Positions 5,346 to 27,249 of a DNA stretch of 64,000 nt are shown here, piece by piece. The notes under the pieces were generated by a model, which was given only the letters and a program-made list of their open reading frames with translations, made no database searches and was not told the DNA's origin. Source of the stretch: an uncultured Thermoleophilia bacterium (GTDB taxonomy: Bacteria; Actinomycetota; Thermoleophilia; UBA2241). Both the position numbers and the translations under genes were made by a program. The stretch covers positions 103,897 to 167,896 of the forward strand of contig CAVTKL010000013.1 in assembly GCA_963735345.1 (NCBI GenBank), written 5' to 3'. Numbering within the stretch: position 1 is the first letter of the stretch; every line of letters starts with the position of its first letter.

Positions 5346-6131
5346 TCAACCCGCGGGCGGCGAAGCGATCATCGAGGGCTCGAAGACCGCCGGGAGCGAG
5401 TGCCGCGGCAGATACGCGTTCAGGACCACACGATCAGCTCTGTACTGCATGGTCAGGTGCTCTATCGGTACTCCCGACAGAGTGTAGGTGAGTCGATCGA
5501 CCTGCAGTACGGGGTCTCCCGTCGTGATGTTCAGCAGGCCGGCCATGTGTCTGCTCGCGGCGGCGGCGGAGACGCGCTGCCGAGCCGCGCCCAGGGGTAG
5601 TCCCGCCTGCGTCTCGAGTACCTCGTACGTCGAGTTCGTGAGCAGCCGCTCCACCGCCACGTGATCGGAGACCCAGGCCGGCATGGAGAGGCAGTCGGTG
5701 GCAACCGGCTCATCGTCGCAGAGGTGGACCCGTTCGATCCGCACCACTTTCTGGCCCAGTTCGAGTCCCAGCTGTTCGCGCACCTCATCGGGGGGCAGCG
5801 AGAGCTCCCAGTGTACGGGCTTGAGTGACACCACGAAGCCTTGCGCTGCCATTGCCTCCGGGAAACTACGGAGATCGCTCAGGTCCTGCTCGAACTCGCG
5901 ATGCGTGACGAAGGTCCCTTTGCCCGAACGCCGAGTGAGGCGACCCTCCTGCTCGAGCAGGGCAAGTGCAGCTCTGACTGTCGAGCGGCTCACCCCATAC
6001 TCACGCATGAACTCCGGTTCCGTCGGCAGTCTCCGGCCGGCTTTGAAGCCACCCGCCATGATCTGCGCTCGCAGTTGGTCGGCGATCTGCACGTAGATCG
6101 GTCTCACGGTGTCTCTCTCGATGTGGGTCAT
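5346..6131 (-). CDS. GntR/HutC-family regulator with UTRA domain
   Basis: PIYVQIADQLR...LPTEPEF..YGVSRSTVRAAL..EGRLTRRSGKGTFV; UTRA-like C-terminus. Confidence 0.92.
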   Translation of the reverse strand: MTHIERDTVRPIYVQIADQLRAQIMAGGFKAGRRLPTEPEFMREYGVSRSTVRAALALLEQEGRLTRRSGKGTFVTHREFEQDLSDLRSFPEAMAAQGFVVSLKPVHWELSLPPDEVREQLGLELGQKVVRIERVHLCDDEPVATDCLSMPAWVSDHVAVERLLTNSTYEVLETQAGLPLGAARQRVSAAAASRHMAGLLNITTGDPVLQVDRLTYTLSGVPIEHLTMQYRADRVVLNAYLPRHSLPAVFEPSMIASPPAG

Positions 6132-6195
6132 CTTGTCCTCACGCGACGGGCGCTCCGATTCTCTTCCGCTGTCCCGAGCCGGCCGGTGACGCCGA

Positions 6196-6230
6196 TTGAC
6201 CGCGCCGGTACCGCGATATAGCGTACTATA
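6196..6230 (+). promoter_or_regulatory. Sigma70-type promoter overlapped by a palindrome (putative GntR operator)
   Basis: TTGACC(6196)-17 bp-TAGCGT(6219); inverted repeat TATAG-cgta-CTATA at 6217-6230 in the divergent intergenic region. Confidence 0.55.
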
Positions 6231-6262
6231 ACGTATGCAAAGGACTGCAATCGTATAGGAGC

Positions 6263-7300
6263 GTGGCTGCCATGTCTTCTGTTCGCGTCGTTCTCTTCGG
6301 CCTTGGTCCCATCGGCAAGGCCGTTGGCAAGCTGGTCCTCTCTCGCGGCAACCTTGATCTGGTGGGCGGCATCGACGTGGCCCCCGAGTTGAATGGAGTC
6401 GATCTCGGGGAGTGCCTGGGCGCACAGTCGACCCCCGGCCTTCGAGTCAGCGCCGACGCGGAGGGACTCCTGGCGGACGCGAGGCCGGACGTCGTCCTCC
6501 ACTGCACGCAGTCTGCGGTCGCGCAAGTCGCTCCACAGCTCAAGACGATCATCGCTTCCGGCGCCAACGTCGTCTCCACCTGCGAGGAGTTGGCGTTTCC
6601 CTGGCACTCCGACGGTGCTCTCGTCGCTGATCTCGACAAGTTGGCTCGCGAGAGAGGCGTCTCCGTGCTCGGCACAGGCGTCAACCCCGGGTACGCGATG
6701 GATGTCTTGCCGCTCGTCCTCAGCGCCGCCAGCCAGCGTGTCGATCACGTCAGCGTCGAACGCGTCCAGGATGCGGGACGGCGACGCCTGCCGCTGATGC
6801 TCAAGGTGGGGGTGGGCATCTCGACAGAAGAGTTCGAGAGTCGCCGGGCCACCATCGGCCACATCGGCTTGCCGGAGTCGATGTACCTCGTGGCCGAAGG
6901 CCTCGGCTGGAAGCTCGACCACACTGAGAGGACGCTCGAGCCGGTGATCGCCAGGAAGCCAGCGCAGTTCGGTGGGATCTGCGTCGATACTGGTAAGGTA
7001 CTCGGCGTCCACGAGACCGTGCGAGCCTTCGTCGACCACACAGAGCGCATCGTCCTCGATCTGCGCATGTACGCCGGCGCGGCCGATCCGCACGATGCCG
7101 TGGCGATCACGGGTCTGCCCGATCTGCGCCTGCGCGTCGACGGGCTGCACGGCGACATCGTGACGGCAGCGGTAGCCGTCAATGCCGTCACCGCCGTGCT
7201 GCGCGCCGGACCTGGCCTGCTGACCATGCGTGACGTGCCCCTCGTTTCCGCGTGTGTGGGAGTCTCGCGGAGCAGTCGAGTAGACCGCGAAACGGTCTAA
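6263..7300 (+). CDS. 2,4-diaminopentanoate dehydrogenase / native amine dehydrogenase family protein
   Basis: FGLGPIG Rossmann motif, VVSTCEEL, LGTGVNPG, C-terminal GDIVTAAVAVNAV...PGLLTM. Confidence 0.85.
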   Translation: MAAMSSVRVVLFGLGPIGKAVGKLVLSRGNLDLVGGIDVAPELNGVDLGECLGAQSTPGLRVSADAEGLLADARPDVVLHCTQSAVAQVAPQLKTIIASGANVVSTCEELAFPWHSDGALVADLDKLARERGVSVLGTGVNPGYAMDVLPLVLSAASQRVDHVSVERVQDAGRRRLPLMLKVGVGISTEEFESRRATIGHIGLPESMYLVAEGLGWKLDHTERTLEPVIARKPAQFGGICVDTGKVLGVHETVRAFVDHTERIVLDLRMYAGAADPHDAVAITGLPDLRLRVDGLHGDIVTAAVAVNAVTAVLRAGPGLLTMRDVPLVSACVGVSRSSRVDRETV

Positions 7301-7353
7301 ACTAACTTCAGCGACTGAGCCATCGAGATGAGTCGGGCCACCTGGGAGAGCGC

Positions 7354-8166
7354 ATGAGGGTCTTCGTTTCAGCCGATATGGAGGGTGTCTCGTCGGTTGC
7401 CGGCTGGCCCGACGTCACCCCTGGCTCACCGGACTACGAGAGAGCGCGCCACTGGATGACCCAGGACGTCAATGCCGCTATCCAGGGAGCGCTCGAGGCG
7501 AACGCAGAACGCATTCTCGTCAATGACGGCCACATGCACGGCCGCAACATCCTGCCGGAAGAACTCGATGTCCATGCCGAGCTGATCAGGGGCTACGTCA
7601 AGCCGCTGGGCATGATGGAAGGCATTGACCAAGGCTGGGATGCCGCCCTCTTCATCGGCTATCACACGCGCTTCGGAGTACGGGACGGACTCCTGGGCCA
7701 TACCCTCTCGCACGAGTGTTTTCGTGACGTTCGACTCAACGGCCGGCCGGTCACGGAGGCGGAATTGAATGCCGCGACGGCGGGGTCGTACGGTGTCCCT
7801 GCGGTGTTGTTCTCTGGTGACAGCGCCCTCGAAAGAGAGGTCAAGGCGTTCTTGCCGGCCGCTCGAACGATCGTGGTCAAGACCGGGCTTGAGTATGAGA
7901 CCGCTGTCCTGCTCCATCCACAGCGTGCGCGGCAACGCATAAGGGAGGCTGCTCGTGCCGCCGTGCAAGGAGCAGCCGAAGTCGAGCCTTACCGGGTGCA
8001 CACTCCCTGTGTGGTGGAGGCCGAGTTTCAGAGGGTCGGCGTGGCCACACTGGCCTCATCCGTGCCGACGGTGTGCCGCACTGGCGACCTCACAGTCCGC
8101 TTCGAAACGGCAGGGGTGCCCGAGGCCGCGAGGTTGCTGAAGGTCCTGCTGAAACTGGGAGCCTGA
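7354..8166 (+). CDS. dppA: D-aminopeptidase, peptidase family M55
   Basis: VSADMEG, VNDGH, MMEGI, FIGYH, HT zinc-ligand motifs. Confidence 0.92.
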   Translation: MRVFVSADMEGVSSVAGWPDVTPGSPDYERARHWMTQDVNAAIQGALEANAERILVNDGHMHGRNILPEELDVHAELIRGYVKPLGMMEGIDQGWDAALFIGYHTRFGVRDGLLGHTLSHECFRDVRLNGRPVTEAELNAATAGSYGVPAVLFSGDSALEREVKAFLPAARTIVVKTGLEYETAVLLHPQRARQRIREAARAAVQGAAEVEPYRVHTPCVVEAEFQRVGVATLASSVPTVCRTGDLTVRFETAGVPEAARLLKVLLKLGA

Positions 8167-8187
8167 CACGAGCTTCCATCTCAAGAG

Positions 8188-9630
8188 GTGCTGCGGATCG
8201 GAGCGGAACAGGTGCACGTGAGGGTCGCTCGGCTCAGCGATGACGAGAAGAGGCTGATCTACGAAGAGGCGCTCGCCTTGCTCGAAAGCGTCGGGATCCG
8301 CATGTCCGGATCGAACTCACTCGGGCTTCTCGCTGAGGCGGGCGCGCGAGTCGAGACTCGGACCGGCGTCGTCCGCTTCCCCCCCAGTCTCATCGATGAG
8401 CTGGTTCGCCTGTGCCCGCGCGAGATCACCTTGGCGGGAGCCCGACCAGAACACGATGTGGTCTTGGCAGAAGGGGCGCCGCCGCGCTTCTCGCCCTCCG
8501 GCTGCGCTGCGTTCACCATCGACTATCTGACGGGTGAACGTCGTCCGTCGACGCTCGACGACCTGCACAAGGCTACGGTCCTGCTGGATGAGTCCCCAGA
8601 GGTGGACATCGTCTGGACGACGGTGTCGGCAACCGATATGCCTCTCGAACGGCGCGAGTTGCTTGAGTACTACACCGTTCTGACACAGTCGCAGAAGCAC
8701 GTCACGCTGGTCAACTGCGCCAGCTCCGCCGGCCCACTGCTTCGCATTCTCGAAGTGCTGTGCGGCGACCTCGACCGCTTTCGCAGCCGCCCGCGTGTCT
8801 CCACGCTGTTCACGGTCGCTTCGCCCTTCCAGCTCGATGGACGCCTGCTGGATCTTCACGCCGAGCTGGCAAGGCACGGAGTGCCGGTCGAGATCTACAC
8901 GGTCCCGCTGGCCGGCGCCACAGCGCCGGTGACGCTCGCCGGAACGGTGACCCAAGGCGTGGCCGAGTTCCTTGGCGCTGCTGCGGCGATGCAAGCACTG
9001 GCTCCTGGAGCTCGTCTCATAATGGGCGCCGGTTCGACCGTGCTCGACATGCACACGGGACAGCTGTGCTACGGCACGCTCGAGACGGGCCTCATGAGCG
9101 CCATGTACACCGAGGTCATGCATCAGCTCAGGATCCCATTAGGTTGCCCAAGCCTCGCCACGGACGCCCGGTACCTCGGGCCGCAGAACAGCTTCGAGAA
9201 AGCCCTCAAGTGCTTCGTGACAACGCTTGCGGGGGCAGACCTGCAAAGCGGCATCGGCGCCCTGGATTCGACGAACTCCCTGTACCTTCCTCAGATCGTG
9301 GTTGACACTGAGATCGTCACGATGGTGCGACGTTTGGTGGGAGCCGTGGACGTATCTCCCGAGACGATCATGCGTGAGATCATCGAGCGCGTCGGCATCG
9401 GTGGGAACTTCCTGGGCGAGAAGGAGACGAGGTCGCGCGTCAAGGACGGGGTGCACTTCGCGCCGACCATCGCCACGCACTTGCCATACGGTGCGTGGAA
9501 GGCCCAACGCAAGGATGATGCCGGCGTGGCCGTTGAACGAGTGGAGCGAATGCTCGCCGGCGGCGCCGCACGCGAGCCCTATCTGAGCCGCGAGCAGCGA
9601 CTCGAGCTGGAGGCGATCTGTGTACGCTGA
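8188..9630 (+). CDS. MttB-superfamily methyltransferase, non-pyrrolysine type
   Basis: LAGATAPVTLAGT; SPFQ; Pyl-equivalent site reads PSLATDAR...FEKA; ERVGIGGNFL. Confidence 0.9.
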   Translation: MLRIGAEQVHVRVARLSDDEKRLIYEEALALLESVGIRMSGSNSLGLLAEAGARVETRTGVVRFPPSLIDELVRLCPREITLAGARPEHDVVLAEGAPPRFSPSGCAAFTIDYLTGERRPSTLDDLHKATVLLDESPEVDIVWTTVSATDMPLERRELLEYYTVLTQSQKHVTLVNCASSAGPLLRILEVLCGDLDRFRSRPRVSTLFTVASPFQLDGRLLDLHAELARHGVPVEIYTVPLAGATAPVTLAGTVTQGVAEFLGAAAAMQALAPGARLIMGAGSTVLDMHTGQLCYGTLETGLMSAMYTEVMHQLRIPLGCPSLATDARYLGPQNSFEKALKCFVTTLAGADLQSGIGALDSTNSLYLPQIVVDTEIVTMVRRLVGAVDVSPETIMREIIERVGIGGNFLGEKETRSRVKDGVHFAPTIATHLPYGAWKAQRKDDAGVAVERVERMLAGGAAREPYLSREQRLELEAICVR

Positions 9631-9690
9631 CTCGAAGAGGAGATCCGCCTGCAGCAGCGTCGCTGCGGACACGCCCAAGAGGAGGAGAGA

Positions 9691-11166
9691 GTGAGACGGA
9701 ACGTGCATGCCGGCCGCTTGCGCAGCGGCGGGCTCAGTCTGAATGTCCTCACGCAGGACGAGATAGAGGACATCCATCTCGCGACGCTCGAAGTGCTGGA
9801 GCACACCGGCGTCTTCATGGAGGACGAAGAGGCGCGGGGACTCCTCGCGGCTGCCGGCTGCCGGGTAGATGCGGAGCGAGGGATAGTCAAGATCCCGCCC
9901 CACATGGTTGAAGAGGCCGCCCGCAGTGCCCCCTCCAAGTTGGTGCTCTGCGGTCGCTCGCCGGACAATGACTTCGTCATGGAGGACGGACGCGTGGGCT
10001 TCACGAGCTTCGGCGAAGGCCTGCGAGTAGTCGACCCCTATACCGCGGAACTCCGCGACTCGACCAAGAAAGACGTCGCGGACTGCACGAGGATCATCGA
10101 TGCACTCTCGGACATCGACGTCGTCGAGCGTCCGGTGGGGGCACACGATGTGCCGCAGGAGGCCGTGCCTCTGCACAACGCAGAGGCGATCTTCGCGAAC
10201 ACCACCAAGCACGCCTTCATCGCCCCTCTCACCGGCTACTTGGCGAGGCGAATGCGAGACATGGCGGTCGCCGTTGCCGGTGGCTCCGACAACCTGCGCG
10301 AGCGGCCGATTCTGTCGTACGTGGTCGCGACCATCAGCCCCCTGAAGATCACGCGGGACGTTTGCCAGATCATCATCGAGGGCGCACGGTCGGGTGTGCC
10401 GGTGCTCGTGTGTCCCAACGCCATGGCCGGCGCCACCTCTCCAGTCACCTTGGCCGGCACACTCGTGACCCACAACGCTGAGACGCTCGCCGGCATCACG
10501 CTTTCGCAAATCGCCAAGAAGGGCGCTCCGGTGATCTATGGCTCGTCCACGACCGCCATGGATCTAAGGCTCGCTTCCGCATCCATGGGCACACCGGAAT
10601 GCGCCCTCCTGAGCGCCAGCGCCGTCCATCTCGCTCGCCGCTACCTGCTCCCCAGTTGGGTCGCCGGTACGTAGGCTGACTCCAAAGTGGGCGATGTCCA
10701 GTGCGGGCATGAGAAGACGCTCACAGGCCTGTTGGCTGCGTTGGCAGGTGCCAACCTGATCTACGGCCTGGGGATGCTCGAGTCGGGTATCACGATGGAT
10801 TTCGGCCAGCTCGTGCTCGACAACGAGATCGCTCGCCTCATCAAGTTCACGGTGGCAGGCATCTCCATCAACGACGAGACCCTTGCGGTGGAGGACATCG
10901 CCCGGGTCGGCTCGTTCGGAGACTTCCTCTCGCTGGACTCCACCTACAAGCACATGCGCGAGCAAAGCATGCCAAAGCTGATGGACCGTCGGGTGCGAGA
11001 GGACTGGGCCTCAGCCGGCTCGACGGACGCTCACACGCGCGCCACGGCCGAGGCCCGACGCATACTGGAGACGCACCAGCCCGAGCCGCTGCCCGAGACC
11101 GTGCTCGAGGAGTTGCGTGCGATCATCCACGAGGCTGAGTTCGAACTCGGCGCGGCGGGCGCCTGA
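9691..11166 (+). CDS. mttB: Pyrrolysine-type trimethylamine:corrinoid methyltransferase (491 aa, in-frame TAG at 10672-10674 as codon 328)
   Basis: ORFs 9691-10674 and 10687-11166 share a frame; junction reads LPSWVAGT-TAG-ADSKVGDVQCGHEKT, matching the Pyl site context of MttB; GANLIYGLGMLE. Confidence 0.9.
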
Positions 11167-25262: not shown

Positions 25263-26249
25263 ATGGCGAAGACACTCGAATCTATGAAGAGCGTTTCCAT
25301 CGAGGACATCGACAAGTATTTCGCTACGGCGAAGATCATCAAGGACTTCATGCTGAAGGACGGCTACAAGCCGACCTTCTTCCAGAACAACCAGGTCCTT
25401 GCCACCGTGTGGGAGCGTCCCTCGCTGCGCACCCGCGTCTCCTTCGAGACCGGCTTCCAGGCGCTCGGCGGCGGCGTCATCACCCTGAAGGCGTATCCGG
25501 CGAATGCCGCGGATATCATCTTCAAGGAAGACGTCCGCGACCAGGCCAACGTGCTCGAGAGCATGTGCGACCTCGTCATGGCGCGCACCTACAGCCACGA
25601 CACCATCACCAAGCTCGGCGCCGCGATGAGCATCCCGCTGATCAACGGCATGAGCGACATGGCTCACCCCGTCCAGCAGCTCACCGACCTGTTCACGACT
25701 CTCGAGCAGAAGGGCAAGCTCAAGGGCCTCAAGGTCGCCTACATGGGCGAGGGCACCGGCAACACCGCGCAGGACTGGCTCATCGCCGCCGCGAGCTGCG
25801 GCATGAACTTCACGATGGCGACCCCGGACTACTCCAAGCACAAGCTGCTCCAGGACCTGCATTTCGGCATGCCGGATCAGACCTGGGTAGACGAGGCCAA
25901 GAAGCGCGCCGCCATCACCGGCGCGACGATCACCTTCACCAACGATCCCGTCGCGGCCGCCAAGGACGCGGATGTCATCTACACCGACAGCTGGATCGCC
26001 TACGACGTGCCGGAAGAGAAGGCTCAGGCCAACGAGATCCGCGAGATCTTCCTGCCGTACCAGGTCAACGCTGAGCTCCTCAAGTTGGCCCCGAACGCGA
26101 TCGTCATGCACTGCCAGCCGATGTACCGCGGCTTCGAGATCACCGAAGAGGTCACCTCGAGCCCGCAGTGCGTCGTGTCCGCGCAGGCCGAGAACCGCTA
26201 CCATCTGCAGAAGGGCGTGATGGTCGAGCTTCTCAAGCCGGGCGTCTGA
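25263..26249 (+). CDS. Carbamoyltransferase (OTC family, divergent acceptor site)
   Basis: PSLRTRVSFE, MART, INGMSDMAHPVQ, MHCQP, QAENR; AAGGAGG RBS. Confidence 0.9.
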   Translation: MAKTLESMKSVSIEDIDKYFATAKIIKDFMLKDGYKPTFFQNNQVLATVWERPSLRTRVSFETGFQALGGGVITLKAYPANAADIIFKEDVRDQANVLESMCDLVMARTYSHDTITKLGAAMSIPLINGMSDMAHPVQQLTDLFTTLEQKGKLKGLKVAYMGEGTGNTAQDWLIAAASCGMNFTMATPDYSKHKLLQDLHFGMPDQTWVDEAKKRAAITGATITFTNDPVAAAKDADVIYTDSWIAYDVPEEKAQANEIREIFLPYQVNAELLKLAPNAIVMHCQPMYRGFEITEEVTSSPQCVVSAQAENRYHLQKGVMVELLKPGV

Positions 26250-26286
26250 CAACACTGACCAGTCAACGGAATCGGAGGACGAATAC

Positions 26287-27249
26287 GTGAAACTAGTCGT
26301 AGCTCTTGGCGGCAACGCCATCAAGCAGGCCCACGAGGCGGGCACCGCGGAAGAGCAGTTCGCGAACTGCGAGGTCACCGCGGAAGCGCTCGCCAAGATC
26401 GTCAGCGAGTTCAAGGACGGCGACTGGCTCGCCATCACGCACGGCAACGGTCCGCAGTCGGGTAACCTCGACGTGCAGCAGGTCGCCGGCAAGGAGAAGG
26501 TCCCGGCGCAGCCGCTCGACGTCGTCGGCGCCATGACCCAGGGCCAGATCGGCTACATGTTCATGAACACGATGGAGAAGCACCTCAAGGCGCACGGCGT
26601 CGACAAGGACGTCATCGCCGTCGTCAACCAGGTCATCGTGGACCCGGCCGATCCCGAGTTCGTGGGCGAGAACGCCTCCAAGCCGGTCGGCAACTTCTTC
26701 AGCGAAGAAGAGGCCAAGGCTCTGAAGGCCGCGCACCCCGACTACGTGGTCAAGCACGTCAAGCCGAGTGCGGAGAAGGGTTGGCGCCGTACGGTGCCGT
26801 CCCCGCTTCCGGCGGCCAACGCCGAGGCGCGCGCCCTCAAGAAGATCCTCGACGCCGGCATCATCGTCATCGCCTCCGGCGGCGGCGGCATCCCGGTCAT
26901 GGAAGATGCGGAAGGCAACTACCAGGGCCTCGAAGCCGTCATCGACAAGGACCGCGCGGGTGAGGTCATGGCCATCACCCTCGGCGCCGACACCTTCATG
27001 GTGCTCACCGACGTCGAGAACGCGATCCTCAACTTCGGCAAGGACAACGCCACGCCGGTCGGCAACGTGTCCGTCGCGGACATGAAGAAGCACGCCGCTG
27101 AGGGTCATTTCATGGCCGGCAGCATGGGCCCGAAGGTCGCCTCGGCAATGAAGTTCATCGAGGACGGCGGCCAGCGGGCCATCATCACCTCGCTGAGCAA
27201 GTCCGTGGACGCGCTGGCGGGCAAGTGCGGGACCATCATCACCAAGTAA
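26287..27249 (+). CDS. arcC: Carbamate kinase
   Basis: VALGGNAI, THGNGPQ, TQGQIGY, KPVG, RRTVPSP, GGGGIPV, EAVIDKD, GSMGPKV. Confidence 0.96.
   Translation: MKLVVALGGNAIKQAHEAGTAEEQFANCEVTAEALAKIVSEFKDGDWLAITHGNGPQSGNLDVQQVAGKEKVPAQPLDVVGAMTQGQIGYMFMNTMEKHLKAHGVDKDVIAVVNQVIVDPADPEFVGENASKPVGNFFSEEEAKALKAAHPDYVVKHVKPSAEKGWRRTVPSPLPAANAEARALKKILDAGIIVIASGGGGIPVMEDAEGNYQGLEAVIDKDRAGEVMAITLGADTFMVLTDVENAILNFGKDNATPVGNVSVADMKKHAAEGHFMAGSMGPKVASAMKFIEDGGQRAIITSLSKSVDALAGKCGTIITK

Follow-up and report, generated by a model that had tools for sequence, protein, structure and literature searches.

The 64-kb window analyzed here (the whole stretch of DNA that was examined, a segment of one contig) comes from an uncultured genus of Thermoleophilia, and the assembly to which it belongs (hereafter the host genome) comprises 2.45 Mb in 14 contigs and is 93% complete. 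Within it we identified four closely spaced plus-strand genes for a putative amine dehydrogenase, a DppA-like peptidase, and two MttB-type methyltransferases, divergent from a gene for a GntR regulator with a UTRA effector domain. The genes and their order are as described in an initial annotation made from the sequence alone. The first methyltransferase, here MttB_A, lacks pyrrolysine (Pyl); the second, MttB_O, has an in-frame TAG codon predicted to encode it. We propose, with a probability of about 0.4, that the four genes form a lineage-restricted catabolic operon for the stepwise demethylation and deamination of a methylated amine freed from an amide. The features of the locus are as follows.

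5346-6131, minus strand: HutC-type GntR regulator with winged helix-turn-helix and UTRA effector domains (PF00392, 74 bits; PF07702, 104 bits)
6132-6271, no strand: divergent intergenic region of 140 bp, in which an AT-rich patch holds the imperfect palindrome GCGTACTATAACGTATGC (6221-6238), a candidate operator
6272-7300, plus strand: predicted NAD(P)-dependent amine dehydrogenase (DAP_DH_C family, native amine dehydrogenase or nat-AmDH of G1 type), first gene of the proposed operon (PF19328, 112 bits)
7354-8166, plus strand: predicted M55 DppA-like metallopeptidase (PF04951, 312 bits, full length)
8188-9630, plus strand: MttB_A, non-Pyl methyltransferase of the MttB superfamily (PF06253, 238.7 bits), with Ala at the Pyl-equivalent site
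9691-11166, plus strand: MttB_O, Pyl-type MttB (TIGR02369), with a single in-frame TAG at 10672-10674 (codon 328)
10672-10771, plus strand: PYLIS_3-like region, directly 3' of the UAG (Rfam RF02510, full model length)

The gaps between the four plus-strand genes are 53, 21, and 60 nt, and MttB_O is preceded by a strong GAGGAGG. The dehydrogenase gene starts at ATG 6272 after AGGAG, with an alternative GTG at 6263. The regulator coding sequence begins MTHIERD, and the 359-aa open reading frame that continues to 6425 is over-extended. Short contigs from four environmental runs, 90 to 99% identical to the window, span every gene junction and the TAG; therefore, the gene order is not an assembly artifact (one of the four runs may be the source sample). 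Metagenomes from sediment, soil, wetland, and groundwater contain near-identical DNA at low depth. No RNA runs are listed among the 22 runs.

The complete gene set recurs in a second species of the same genus (genome G057), with all four genes in the same order. Protein identities are 76, 81, 79, and 82% for the dehydrogenase, DppA, MttB_A, and MttB_O, respectively, and the G057 MttB_O has the identical layout of 327 codons, TAG, and 159 codons. The regions that flank the block in G057 map to three different contigs of the host genome. As both flanks differ, the block remained whole through changes in its genomic surroundings. Ratios of nonsynonymous to synonymous divergence (dN/dS) are 0.13 to 0.23, and all four genes are under purifying selection. 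On a metagenome contig (L137), MttB_A (82% identity) is directly followed by MttB_O (86%, with the TAG), an MttC-type corrinoid protein gene, and an rve transposase gene, and is preceded by a glutamine-synthetase-like gene and an ATP-binding cassette (ABC) ATPase gene. The initial annotation had staked its proposal on the combination being found in some other genome. G057 keeps the four genes and the TAG, and L137 keeps the methyltransferase pair. The MttB_A and MttB_O clades are in strict tandem in all three occurrences, and this pair is the core of the gene set. Literature searches gave no description of the set, in line with the earlier remark that no described pathway has it.

The assignment of MttB_O as a Pyl-type enzyme is supported along its full length. 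Read through the TAG, it scores 700.5 bits against the TIGR02369 equivalog (cut-off 525) and aligns end to end with Methanosarcina barkeri MttB (399.7 bits), with the TAG exactly opposite Pyl334 (structures 7xcl/7xcm). The TAG that had been reported in the second MttB is thus confirmed, and at the Pyl position. A split gene encoding proteins of 327 aa and 159 aa was considered and rejected, given that GTG 10687 lacks a ribosome binding site and that the TAG falls exactly at the Pyl position. Also arguing against a split gene, the layout is that of all Pyl-mttB genes in the genus. The sequence 3' of the TAG matches PYLIS_3 with 67.4 bits (gathering score 38, E 1.5e-12), a match that may partly reflect protein conservation because the model covers coding sequence. 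The TAG is retained in 3/3 MttB_O orthologs, and dN/dS is 0.11 to 0.14 before it and 0.16 to 0.26 after it.

Two further observations concern this region at the nucleotide level. Environmental contigs pile up at 10650-10863, just after the TAG; in three of the four runs the summed depth is 22 to 88 there versus ~2 to 7 at other positions. Synonymous divergence (dS) is ~0.5 after the TAG versus 0.7 to 1.0 before it. Both observations suggest that the PYLIS_3 region is conserved among mttB paralogs at the level of nucleotides.

The predicted substrate pocket of MttB_O is partly changed. In M. barkeri MttB, the trimethylamine pocket over the cobalt opens when Met249 moves out of the way, and Gly110 and Tyr364 are given as fully conserved (PMC9842639). 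MttB_O keeps the equivalents of Gly110 and Tyr364 and has Asn in place of Met249. The motif around this site is CPNAMA in 3/3 proteins of the MttB_O clade and LSMAMA in 20/20 other Thermoleophilia Pyl-MttBs and in Methanosarcina. Directly after Pyl, the MttB_O clade has Ala or Thr (Ala in MttB_O itself) in place of Gly. As a signal of a different substrate, the changed pocket residue is suggestive and no more. A quick IQ-TREE phylogeny of 48 MttB sequences, with support from the Shimodaira-Hasegawa-like approximate likelihood ratio test (SH-aLRT), places MttB_O and its two orthologs in a third Pyl-MttB clade, next to two canonical clades that are both represented in the host genome. A protein from another genome (G314, 68% identity), considered as a third ortholog, was rejected on the basis of its canonical LSMAMA and AGA-Pyl-GDSK motifs and its TetR-mtbB-mttC context. 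A separate case in another genome (L009:2999-4460; G019 C3:63040-64500) belongs to a Pyl-MttB clade but has no TAG; Leu stands in place of Pyl and Ala in place of Tyr364. It directly follows a TAG-bearing mttB and looks like a paralog that lost pyrrolysine. A TAG in mttB is by itself not new; expression of Pyl-mttB and mtbB in peatland Actinobacteriota has already been published (PMC10805028).

MttB_A has the MTTB fold without Pyl and is therefore a member of the non-Pyl MttB superfamily. Its score against TIGR02369 is 305.8 bits, under the cut-off of 525. Alignment confirms the Ala that had been noted at the Pyl-equivalent site of the first MttB; across the MttB_A clade this column holds Ala, Ser, or Gly. 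By score MttB_A is slightly nearer to Pyl-MttB (159.6 bits) than to the glycine betaine enzyme MtgB (133.7 bits). The glycine-betaine-binding residues of Desulfitobacterium hafniense MtgB are Y97, R312, H348, and F356 (PMC13080624), and they align to Gly, Gly, Ser, and Thr in MttB_A (mapped by hand from the 9yce alignment, in which the chain number is the native number minus 2). Since all four residues differ, an MtgB-type function was rejected. In the tree, MttB_A and its G057 and L137 orthologs form a clade with 100% support, sister (99%) to seven proteins of a second genus, designated g18, and dN/dS for MttB_A is 0.13 to 0.17. The characterized non-Pyl MttBs each remove a single methyl group from a quaternary amine (PMC13080624, PMC8604678, PMC12155760). 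By analogy, MttB_A would be expected to use a quaternary amine as methyl donor for a Co(I) corrinoid protein.

The strict tandem of the two methyltransferase genes, found in all three occurrences, would also suit a mixed oligomer of MttB_A and MttB_O (for example, mixed dimers in the MttB hexamer) that serves both a quaternary and a tertiary amine. M. barkeri MttB is built from three tightly packed dimers (PMC9842639), so a paralog could take the partner position. However, the two proteins are only ~31% identical, and all of the listed solved structures of the family were deposited as homo-oligomers. We consider such an assembly improbable.

The dehydrogenase was first described as resembling 2,4-diaminopentanoate dehydrogenase. 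It does belong to the DAP_DH_C family, but it appears to be a native amine dehydrogenase of group G1 rather than the enzyme of the ornithine pathway (Ord). The latter assignment was rejected on its score of 264.6 bits against NF040740 (Ord), under the cut-off of 400, and on the presence of Arg rather than Phe at position P12. The nearest structures are 7xdu (206 bits) and AmDH4 (6g1h/6g1m, 178 bits), and other characterized native amine dehydrogenases are more distant. The active-site signature at P3/P9/P10/P12/P15 is E-R-Q-R-H, with the catalytic Glu at P3, and E-R-x-R-H is common to 80/80 of the best homologous loci. A second homolog in the host genome (contig C4) has the true G2 Ord signature, E-R-N-F-H. 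The G1 placement is by sequence alignment to AmDH4 (6g1h), not by the structure-based pipeline of the authors of PMC11164908; residues P136, F138, V139, and L140 served to check the numbering offset, and the P9-P12 spacing came from the CfusAmDH row of a supplementary table.

According to that study, Arg at P12 marks G1, the G1 signature is read as a sign of a carboxylate-bearing amine substrate, and family members that accept methylamine as amine donor are reported (PMC11164908). The same source describes G1 as more than 1,400 sequences for which docking and genomic context gave no function. For the locus studied here, the methylated-amine substrate skeleton probably carries a carboxylate.

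The peptidase matches PF04951 with 312 bits over positions 1-263 of 264 and is predicted to belong to family M55. It aligns end to end with Bacillus subtilis DppA (1hi9, 144 bits). Residues D8, E10, H60, H104, and E133, which we take to be the zinc ligands of DppA, are identical. Its score against NF058634 is 194 bits, under the equivalog cut-off of 430. Its relatives in 401 Thermoleophilia genomes, G057 aside, are at most 40% identical.

Taken together, these assignments suggest the following route. The M55 peptidase would first cleave an amide or peptide bond and so release the methylated compound. MttB_A would then demethylate a quaternary ammonium group once, with a Co(I) corrinoid protein as methyl acceptor. 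MttB_O would take the next methyl from the resulting tertiary amine (or from trimethylamine), with pyrrolysine activating the substrate, and the G1-type dehydrogenase would oxidatively remove the remaining (methyl)amino group to leave a carbonyl compound. The corrinoid protein, a RamA-type activase, and a methyl-corrinoid:tetrahydrofolate methyltransferase would be supplied in trans, and the divergent HutC-type GntR would repress the operon in this strain. We infer the substrate class, the order of the steps, the co-transcription of the four genes, and their regulation.

A more specific version, which we regard as rather unlikely, is that MttB_O acts on the substituted tertiary amine left by MttB_A and not on trimethylamine, the substrate on which characterized Pyl-MttB is reported to act. 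Combined with the M55 hydrolase and the G1 dehydrogenase, this would be the first pathway in a soil actinobacterium for stepwise stripping of a quaternary amine (quaternary to tertiary to N-methyl to carbonyl plus methylamine). Candidate substrates would be diamino or amino acids that are both N-trimethylated and amide-linked; examples are trimethylornithine, trimethyllysine, and amino-acid betaines.

Related loci combine similar functions in other ways. In the genus g18, 7/7 fetched loci (L138-L144) have in order an MttB_A-like gene, TetR, mtbB (TAG), mttB (TAG), and mttC. On contigs that reach far enough, genes for an Opp-type ABC importer and a CocE/NonD (S15) hydrolase are found upstream (5/7), and those for an omega-aminotransferase and a type II glyceraldehyde-3-phosphate dehydrogenase (GAPDH) are found downstream. 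The TetR-mtbB-mttB-mttC cassette sits between the non-Pyl MttB and the aminotransferase (e.g., L138:1264-17351), placing three methyltransferases in a row, of the quaternary, tertiary, and secondary amine types, ahead of the aminotransferase. More distant MttB_A paralogs, including one in the host genome (L148) and one in G057 (L152) as well as L145 and L146, have a related gene order, namely a CocE/NonD hydrolase (present at L148 and L152) or Opp importer, the MttB, an omega-aminotransferase, a type II GAPDH, a phosphoglycerate kinase (PGK)-like protein, and a LarA homolog. The host module lies on contig C11 at 191,800-200,200 (L148:5823-14182), and its type II GAPDH scores 395 bits, above the cut-off. 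The LarA homolog of the paralogous module is nearest to malate racemase (474 bits, cut-off 500).

The combination of a hydrolase, a demethylase, and an amine-removing enzyme recurs around the MttB_A superclade, and the operon in the window looks like a compact version assembled from non-homologous parts. The initial annotation had suggested that a compound is released from peptides, deaminated, and demethylated stepwise. Modules in which a CocE/NonD S15 hydrolase and an aminotransferase lie beside an MttB of the MttB_A clade give this idea indirect support, but the set is very rare and its GntR regulator is not conserved. As an observation on the L148-type module itself, a carnitine-like 3-hydroxy-4-trimethylaminobutyrate would fit as substrate on chemical grounds. 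Demethylation and transamination may yield a look-alike of glyceraldehyde-3-phosphate, which could be converted via an acyl phosphate to D-malate with formation of ATP, and the racemase could then produce L-malate.

The regulator combines an N-terminal GntR winged helix with a C-terminal UTRA domain, the arrangement that defines the HutC/FarR subfamily. Its best NCBIfam matches are the Rv0792c family and HutC, each under its cut-off. The palindrome reported over the promoter is present at 6221-6238 but is imperfect, with 6/9 pairs matching, and not statistically distinctive. It was found by hand; a repeat finder did not report it and gave only a GC-rich overlap at 6171-6190. A pattern built from the palindrome has one match in the window and at least one match in 24/100 shuffles, so the palindrome is not significant by itself. 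A promoter scan scored no sigma-70-like site at the locus, and a terminator scan gave two terminator-like matches, with no excess over shuffles. The flanking genes are unrelated and encode a flavin monooxygenase-like protein, a CDP-alcohol phosphatidyltransferase, a GNAT protein, an S-adenosylmethionine (SAM) methyltransferase, and a DUF7000 protein. Elsewhere in the window (25263-27249), a gene of the ornithine/aspartate carbamoyltransferase family is followed by one of the amino-acid (carbamate) kinase family; these may belong to a pathway of the arginine deiminase type.

Several findings weigh against a dedicated four-gene operon. The full block occurs in 2/89 genomes of the family, and only G057 has both MttB_A at 79% identity or more and MttB_O at 82%. 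An ortholog of the dehydrogenase is found in 1/53 other genomes of the genus. Across ~185,000 species, one (G057) of the 80 best loci has DppA and MttB beside the dehydrogenase. A DppA ortholog is present in 2/401 genomes of the class (a tally that takes in one unpublished genome, G355), with G057 alone above 40% identity, and 0/28 other DppA loci have an MttB within 1.5 kb. On L137 the MttB pair lacks the peptidase and the dehydrogenase; therefore, the link between the pair and these two genes may be recent or loose. The exchange of Met249 for Asn is weakened as a unique hallmark by 53 representatives of Pyl-truncated MttBs, of which 39 have Met in this column and 14 do not, one of the latter having Asn. 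In g18, the adjacency of Pyl genes could be a simple cassette insertion, because TetR-mtbB-mttB-mttC also occurs alone (L150). The operon contains no transporter, corrinoid protein, or activase genes. There is no counterpart of the GntR gene beside the cluster in G057, where the gene upstream is co-oriented, and the palindrome pattern has no match in 151 other fetched loci, so that the candidate operator is not conserved. Finally, none of pylS, pylB, pylD, and tRNA-Pyl was found in the 93%-complete host assembly.

The rarity of the set is consistent with a doubtful but serious alternative, in which MttB_O is an ordinary trimethylamine enzyme and MttB_A an ordinary quaternary-amine enzyme, both shuffled within a genome with more than 20 genes of this kind, and the peptidase and dehydrogenase have an unrelated role in peptide or amino-acid metabolism and were brought alongside by recent rearrangement. 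The four-gene set is known from two species only, and such methyltransferase genes are abundant: the host genome has 21 to 24 MttB-family loci (24 matches), and genomes of the genus have up to ~40 matches. Moreover, a transposase gene of the rve type lies next to the incomplete set on L137, and MttB_O keeps Gly110, Pyl, and Tyr364 and passes the trimethylamine equivalog cut-off. On the other hand, the block is intact across ~20% protein divergence although both of its flanks differ, spacing is tight (21 to 60 nt), and the two methyltransferases remain in tandem wherever they were found. MttB_O also falls in a distinct clade with an altered pocket residue, and for trimethylamine a canonical cluster (mtbB-mttB-mttC-mttC, L150) is already present in the host genome. 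We favor a stepwise catabolic operon, at the probability given above.

The missing pyrrolysine genes raise the question of whether the strain has lost pyrrolysine decoding, in which case MttB_O would be truncated at codon 328 and the operon, as a whole, would be a non-functional, decaying remnant. The genus as such appears to decode pyrrolysine. PylS is above the cut-off in 47/54 genomes of the genus, and PylB and PylD are above it in 5/5 good genomes tested. An MttB match is present in 24/24 other sampled genomes, several per genome having a single TAG. In G057, tRNA-Pyl and pylS adjoin an amidase gene and the block tldD-pmbA-gltX-cysS-rlmB. In the host, this block is on contig C2; the contig breaks off within tldD, and the amidase gene is absent as well, so that the host pylS locus falls into an assembly gap. 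The G057 pylB-pylD genes lie apart from pylS, next to tRNA-Ser(tga) (L026:9092-11173). The corresponding site is contiguous and empty in the host (C6, ~387,987-388,193), a point in favor of loss, and also a sign that pyl genes change position within the genus. However, four of its other genomes have pylB and pylD at a distance of 3 to 7 kb from pylS, so the host copies may sit in the same gap. The host also retains TAG codons in three mttB genes and in at least two mtbB genes, and the part of MttB_O after the TAG is under purifying selection, though this reflects long-term rather than recent history. Decay is very improbable on this evidence; both it and a mixed MttB oligomer are less likely than either the stepwise operon or an association of unrelated neighbors.

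In two other members of the genus (G048 and G049; 1.7 to 1.8 Mb, 98% complete, one to two contigs), PylS was not found above the cut-off, and a first look gave six to nine MttB candidates. In this genus, the use of pyrrolysine seems to vary together with the number of methylamine genes in a genome.

The supply of the other components in trans is compatible with the gene content of the host genome. As noted at the outset for the adjacent genes, there is no corrinoid protein gene in the window, and the nearest is ~93 kb away. The host genome encodes nine MttC-type corrinoid proteins, two RamA-type activases, and one pterin-binding methyltransferase beside one of the activases. A corrinoid protein gene lies within 3 kb of 5/21 host MttB loci. 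Because the other 16 have none at this distance, a missing adjacent corrinoid gene is the rule in this genome. Separately, ~83 kb upstream of the window (C13:18,705-20,730), an MtmB homolog (312.6 bits) without an internal stop directly follows a corrinoid protein gene; it is a non-Pyl relative of monomethylamine methyltransferase.

If MttB_O does act on the product of MttB_A, the locus would provide the first physiological context for the large G1 group of amine dehydrogenases and suggest a substrate class for these enzymes. A dedicated non-Pyl/Pyl pair with a changed pocket, linked to a hydrolase and an amine dehydrogenase, would widen the chemistry assigned to pyrrolysine. Quaternary amines could then be consumed completely in soils and sediments without release of trimethylamine. 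Should the proposal fail, the locus would simply add another rearranged fragment to the very large set of methylamine genes in these Thermoleophilia.

Comparison with known systems places each part in an established family. MttB_O resembles the M. barkeri MttB/MttC system (7XCL, 7XCM, 7XCN; PMC9842639) in its full-length alignment, UAG at Pyl334, conserved Gly110 and Tyr364, and PYLIS_3 match. It differs in that it is bacterial, has Asn for Met249 and Ala after Pyl, lacks an adjacent mttC, stands in tandem with a non-Pyl MttB, and shares its putative operon with a peptidase and an amine dehydrogenase. MttB_A shares PF06253, the absence of Pyl, and a small residue at the Pyl position with MtgB (glycine betaine; 2QNE, 9YCE), MtpB, MtcB, MtyB, and MthB (phosphocholine), but its clade goes with hydrolases and amine-removing enzymes rather than with partners of the mtgC/mtgA type. 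The peptidase has the full-length alignment and the five identical positions in common with the D-aminopeptidase DppA of B. subtilis (MEROPS M55; 1HI9). In contrast to DppA, it is under the equivalog cut-off and has no adjoining dipeptide ABC transporter. The dehydrogenase has the fold, the catalytic Glu, Arg at P9, and His at P15 of the G2 enzymes Ord/AmDH4 (6G1H, 6G1M), residues found in both G1 and G2, but has Arg at P12 where true Ord has Phe, and there is no ornithine-fermentation context at the operon.

A parallel in overall organization is the CocE/NonD-MttB-aminotransferase module of the same bacterial family, which is itself uncharacterized and so serves as a comparison and not as an anchor. 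Both have a non-Pyl MttB of the same superclade together with hydrolysis, demethylation, and amine removal, and in g18 a Pyl-MttB likewise lies downstream of the non-Pyl gene. The hydrolases (M55 versus S15) and the amine-removing enzymes (dehydrogenase versus aminotransferase) are non-homologous, and the operon in the window is without the importer and the GAPDH, PGK, and racemase genes. Overall, the parts come from known families, and what is new is a dedicated Pyl-MttB clade that is paired with a non-Pyl MttB and linked to an M55 peptidase and a G1 amine dehydrogenase.

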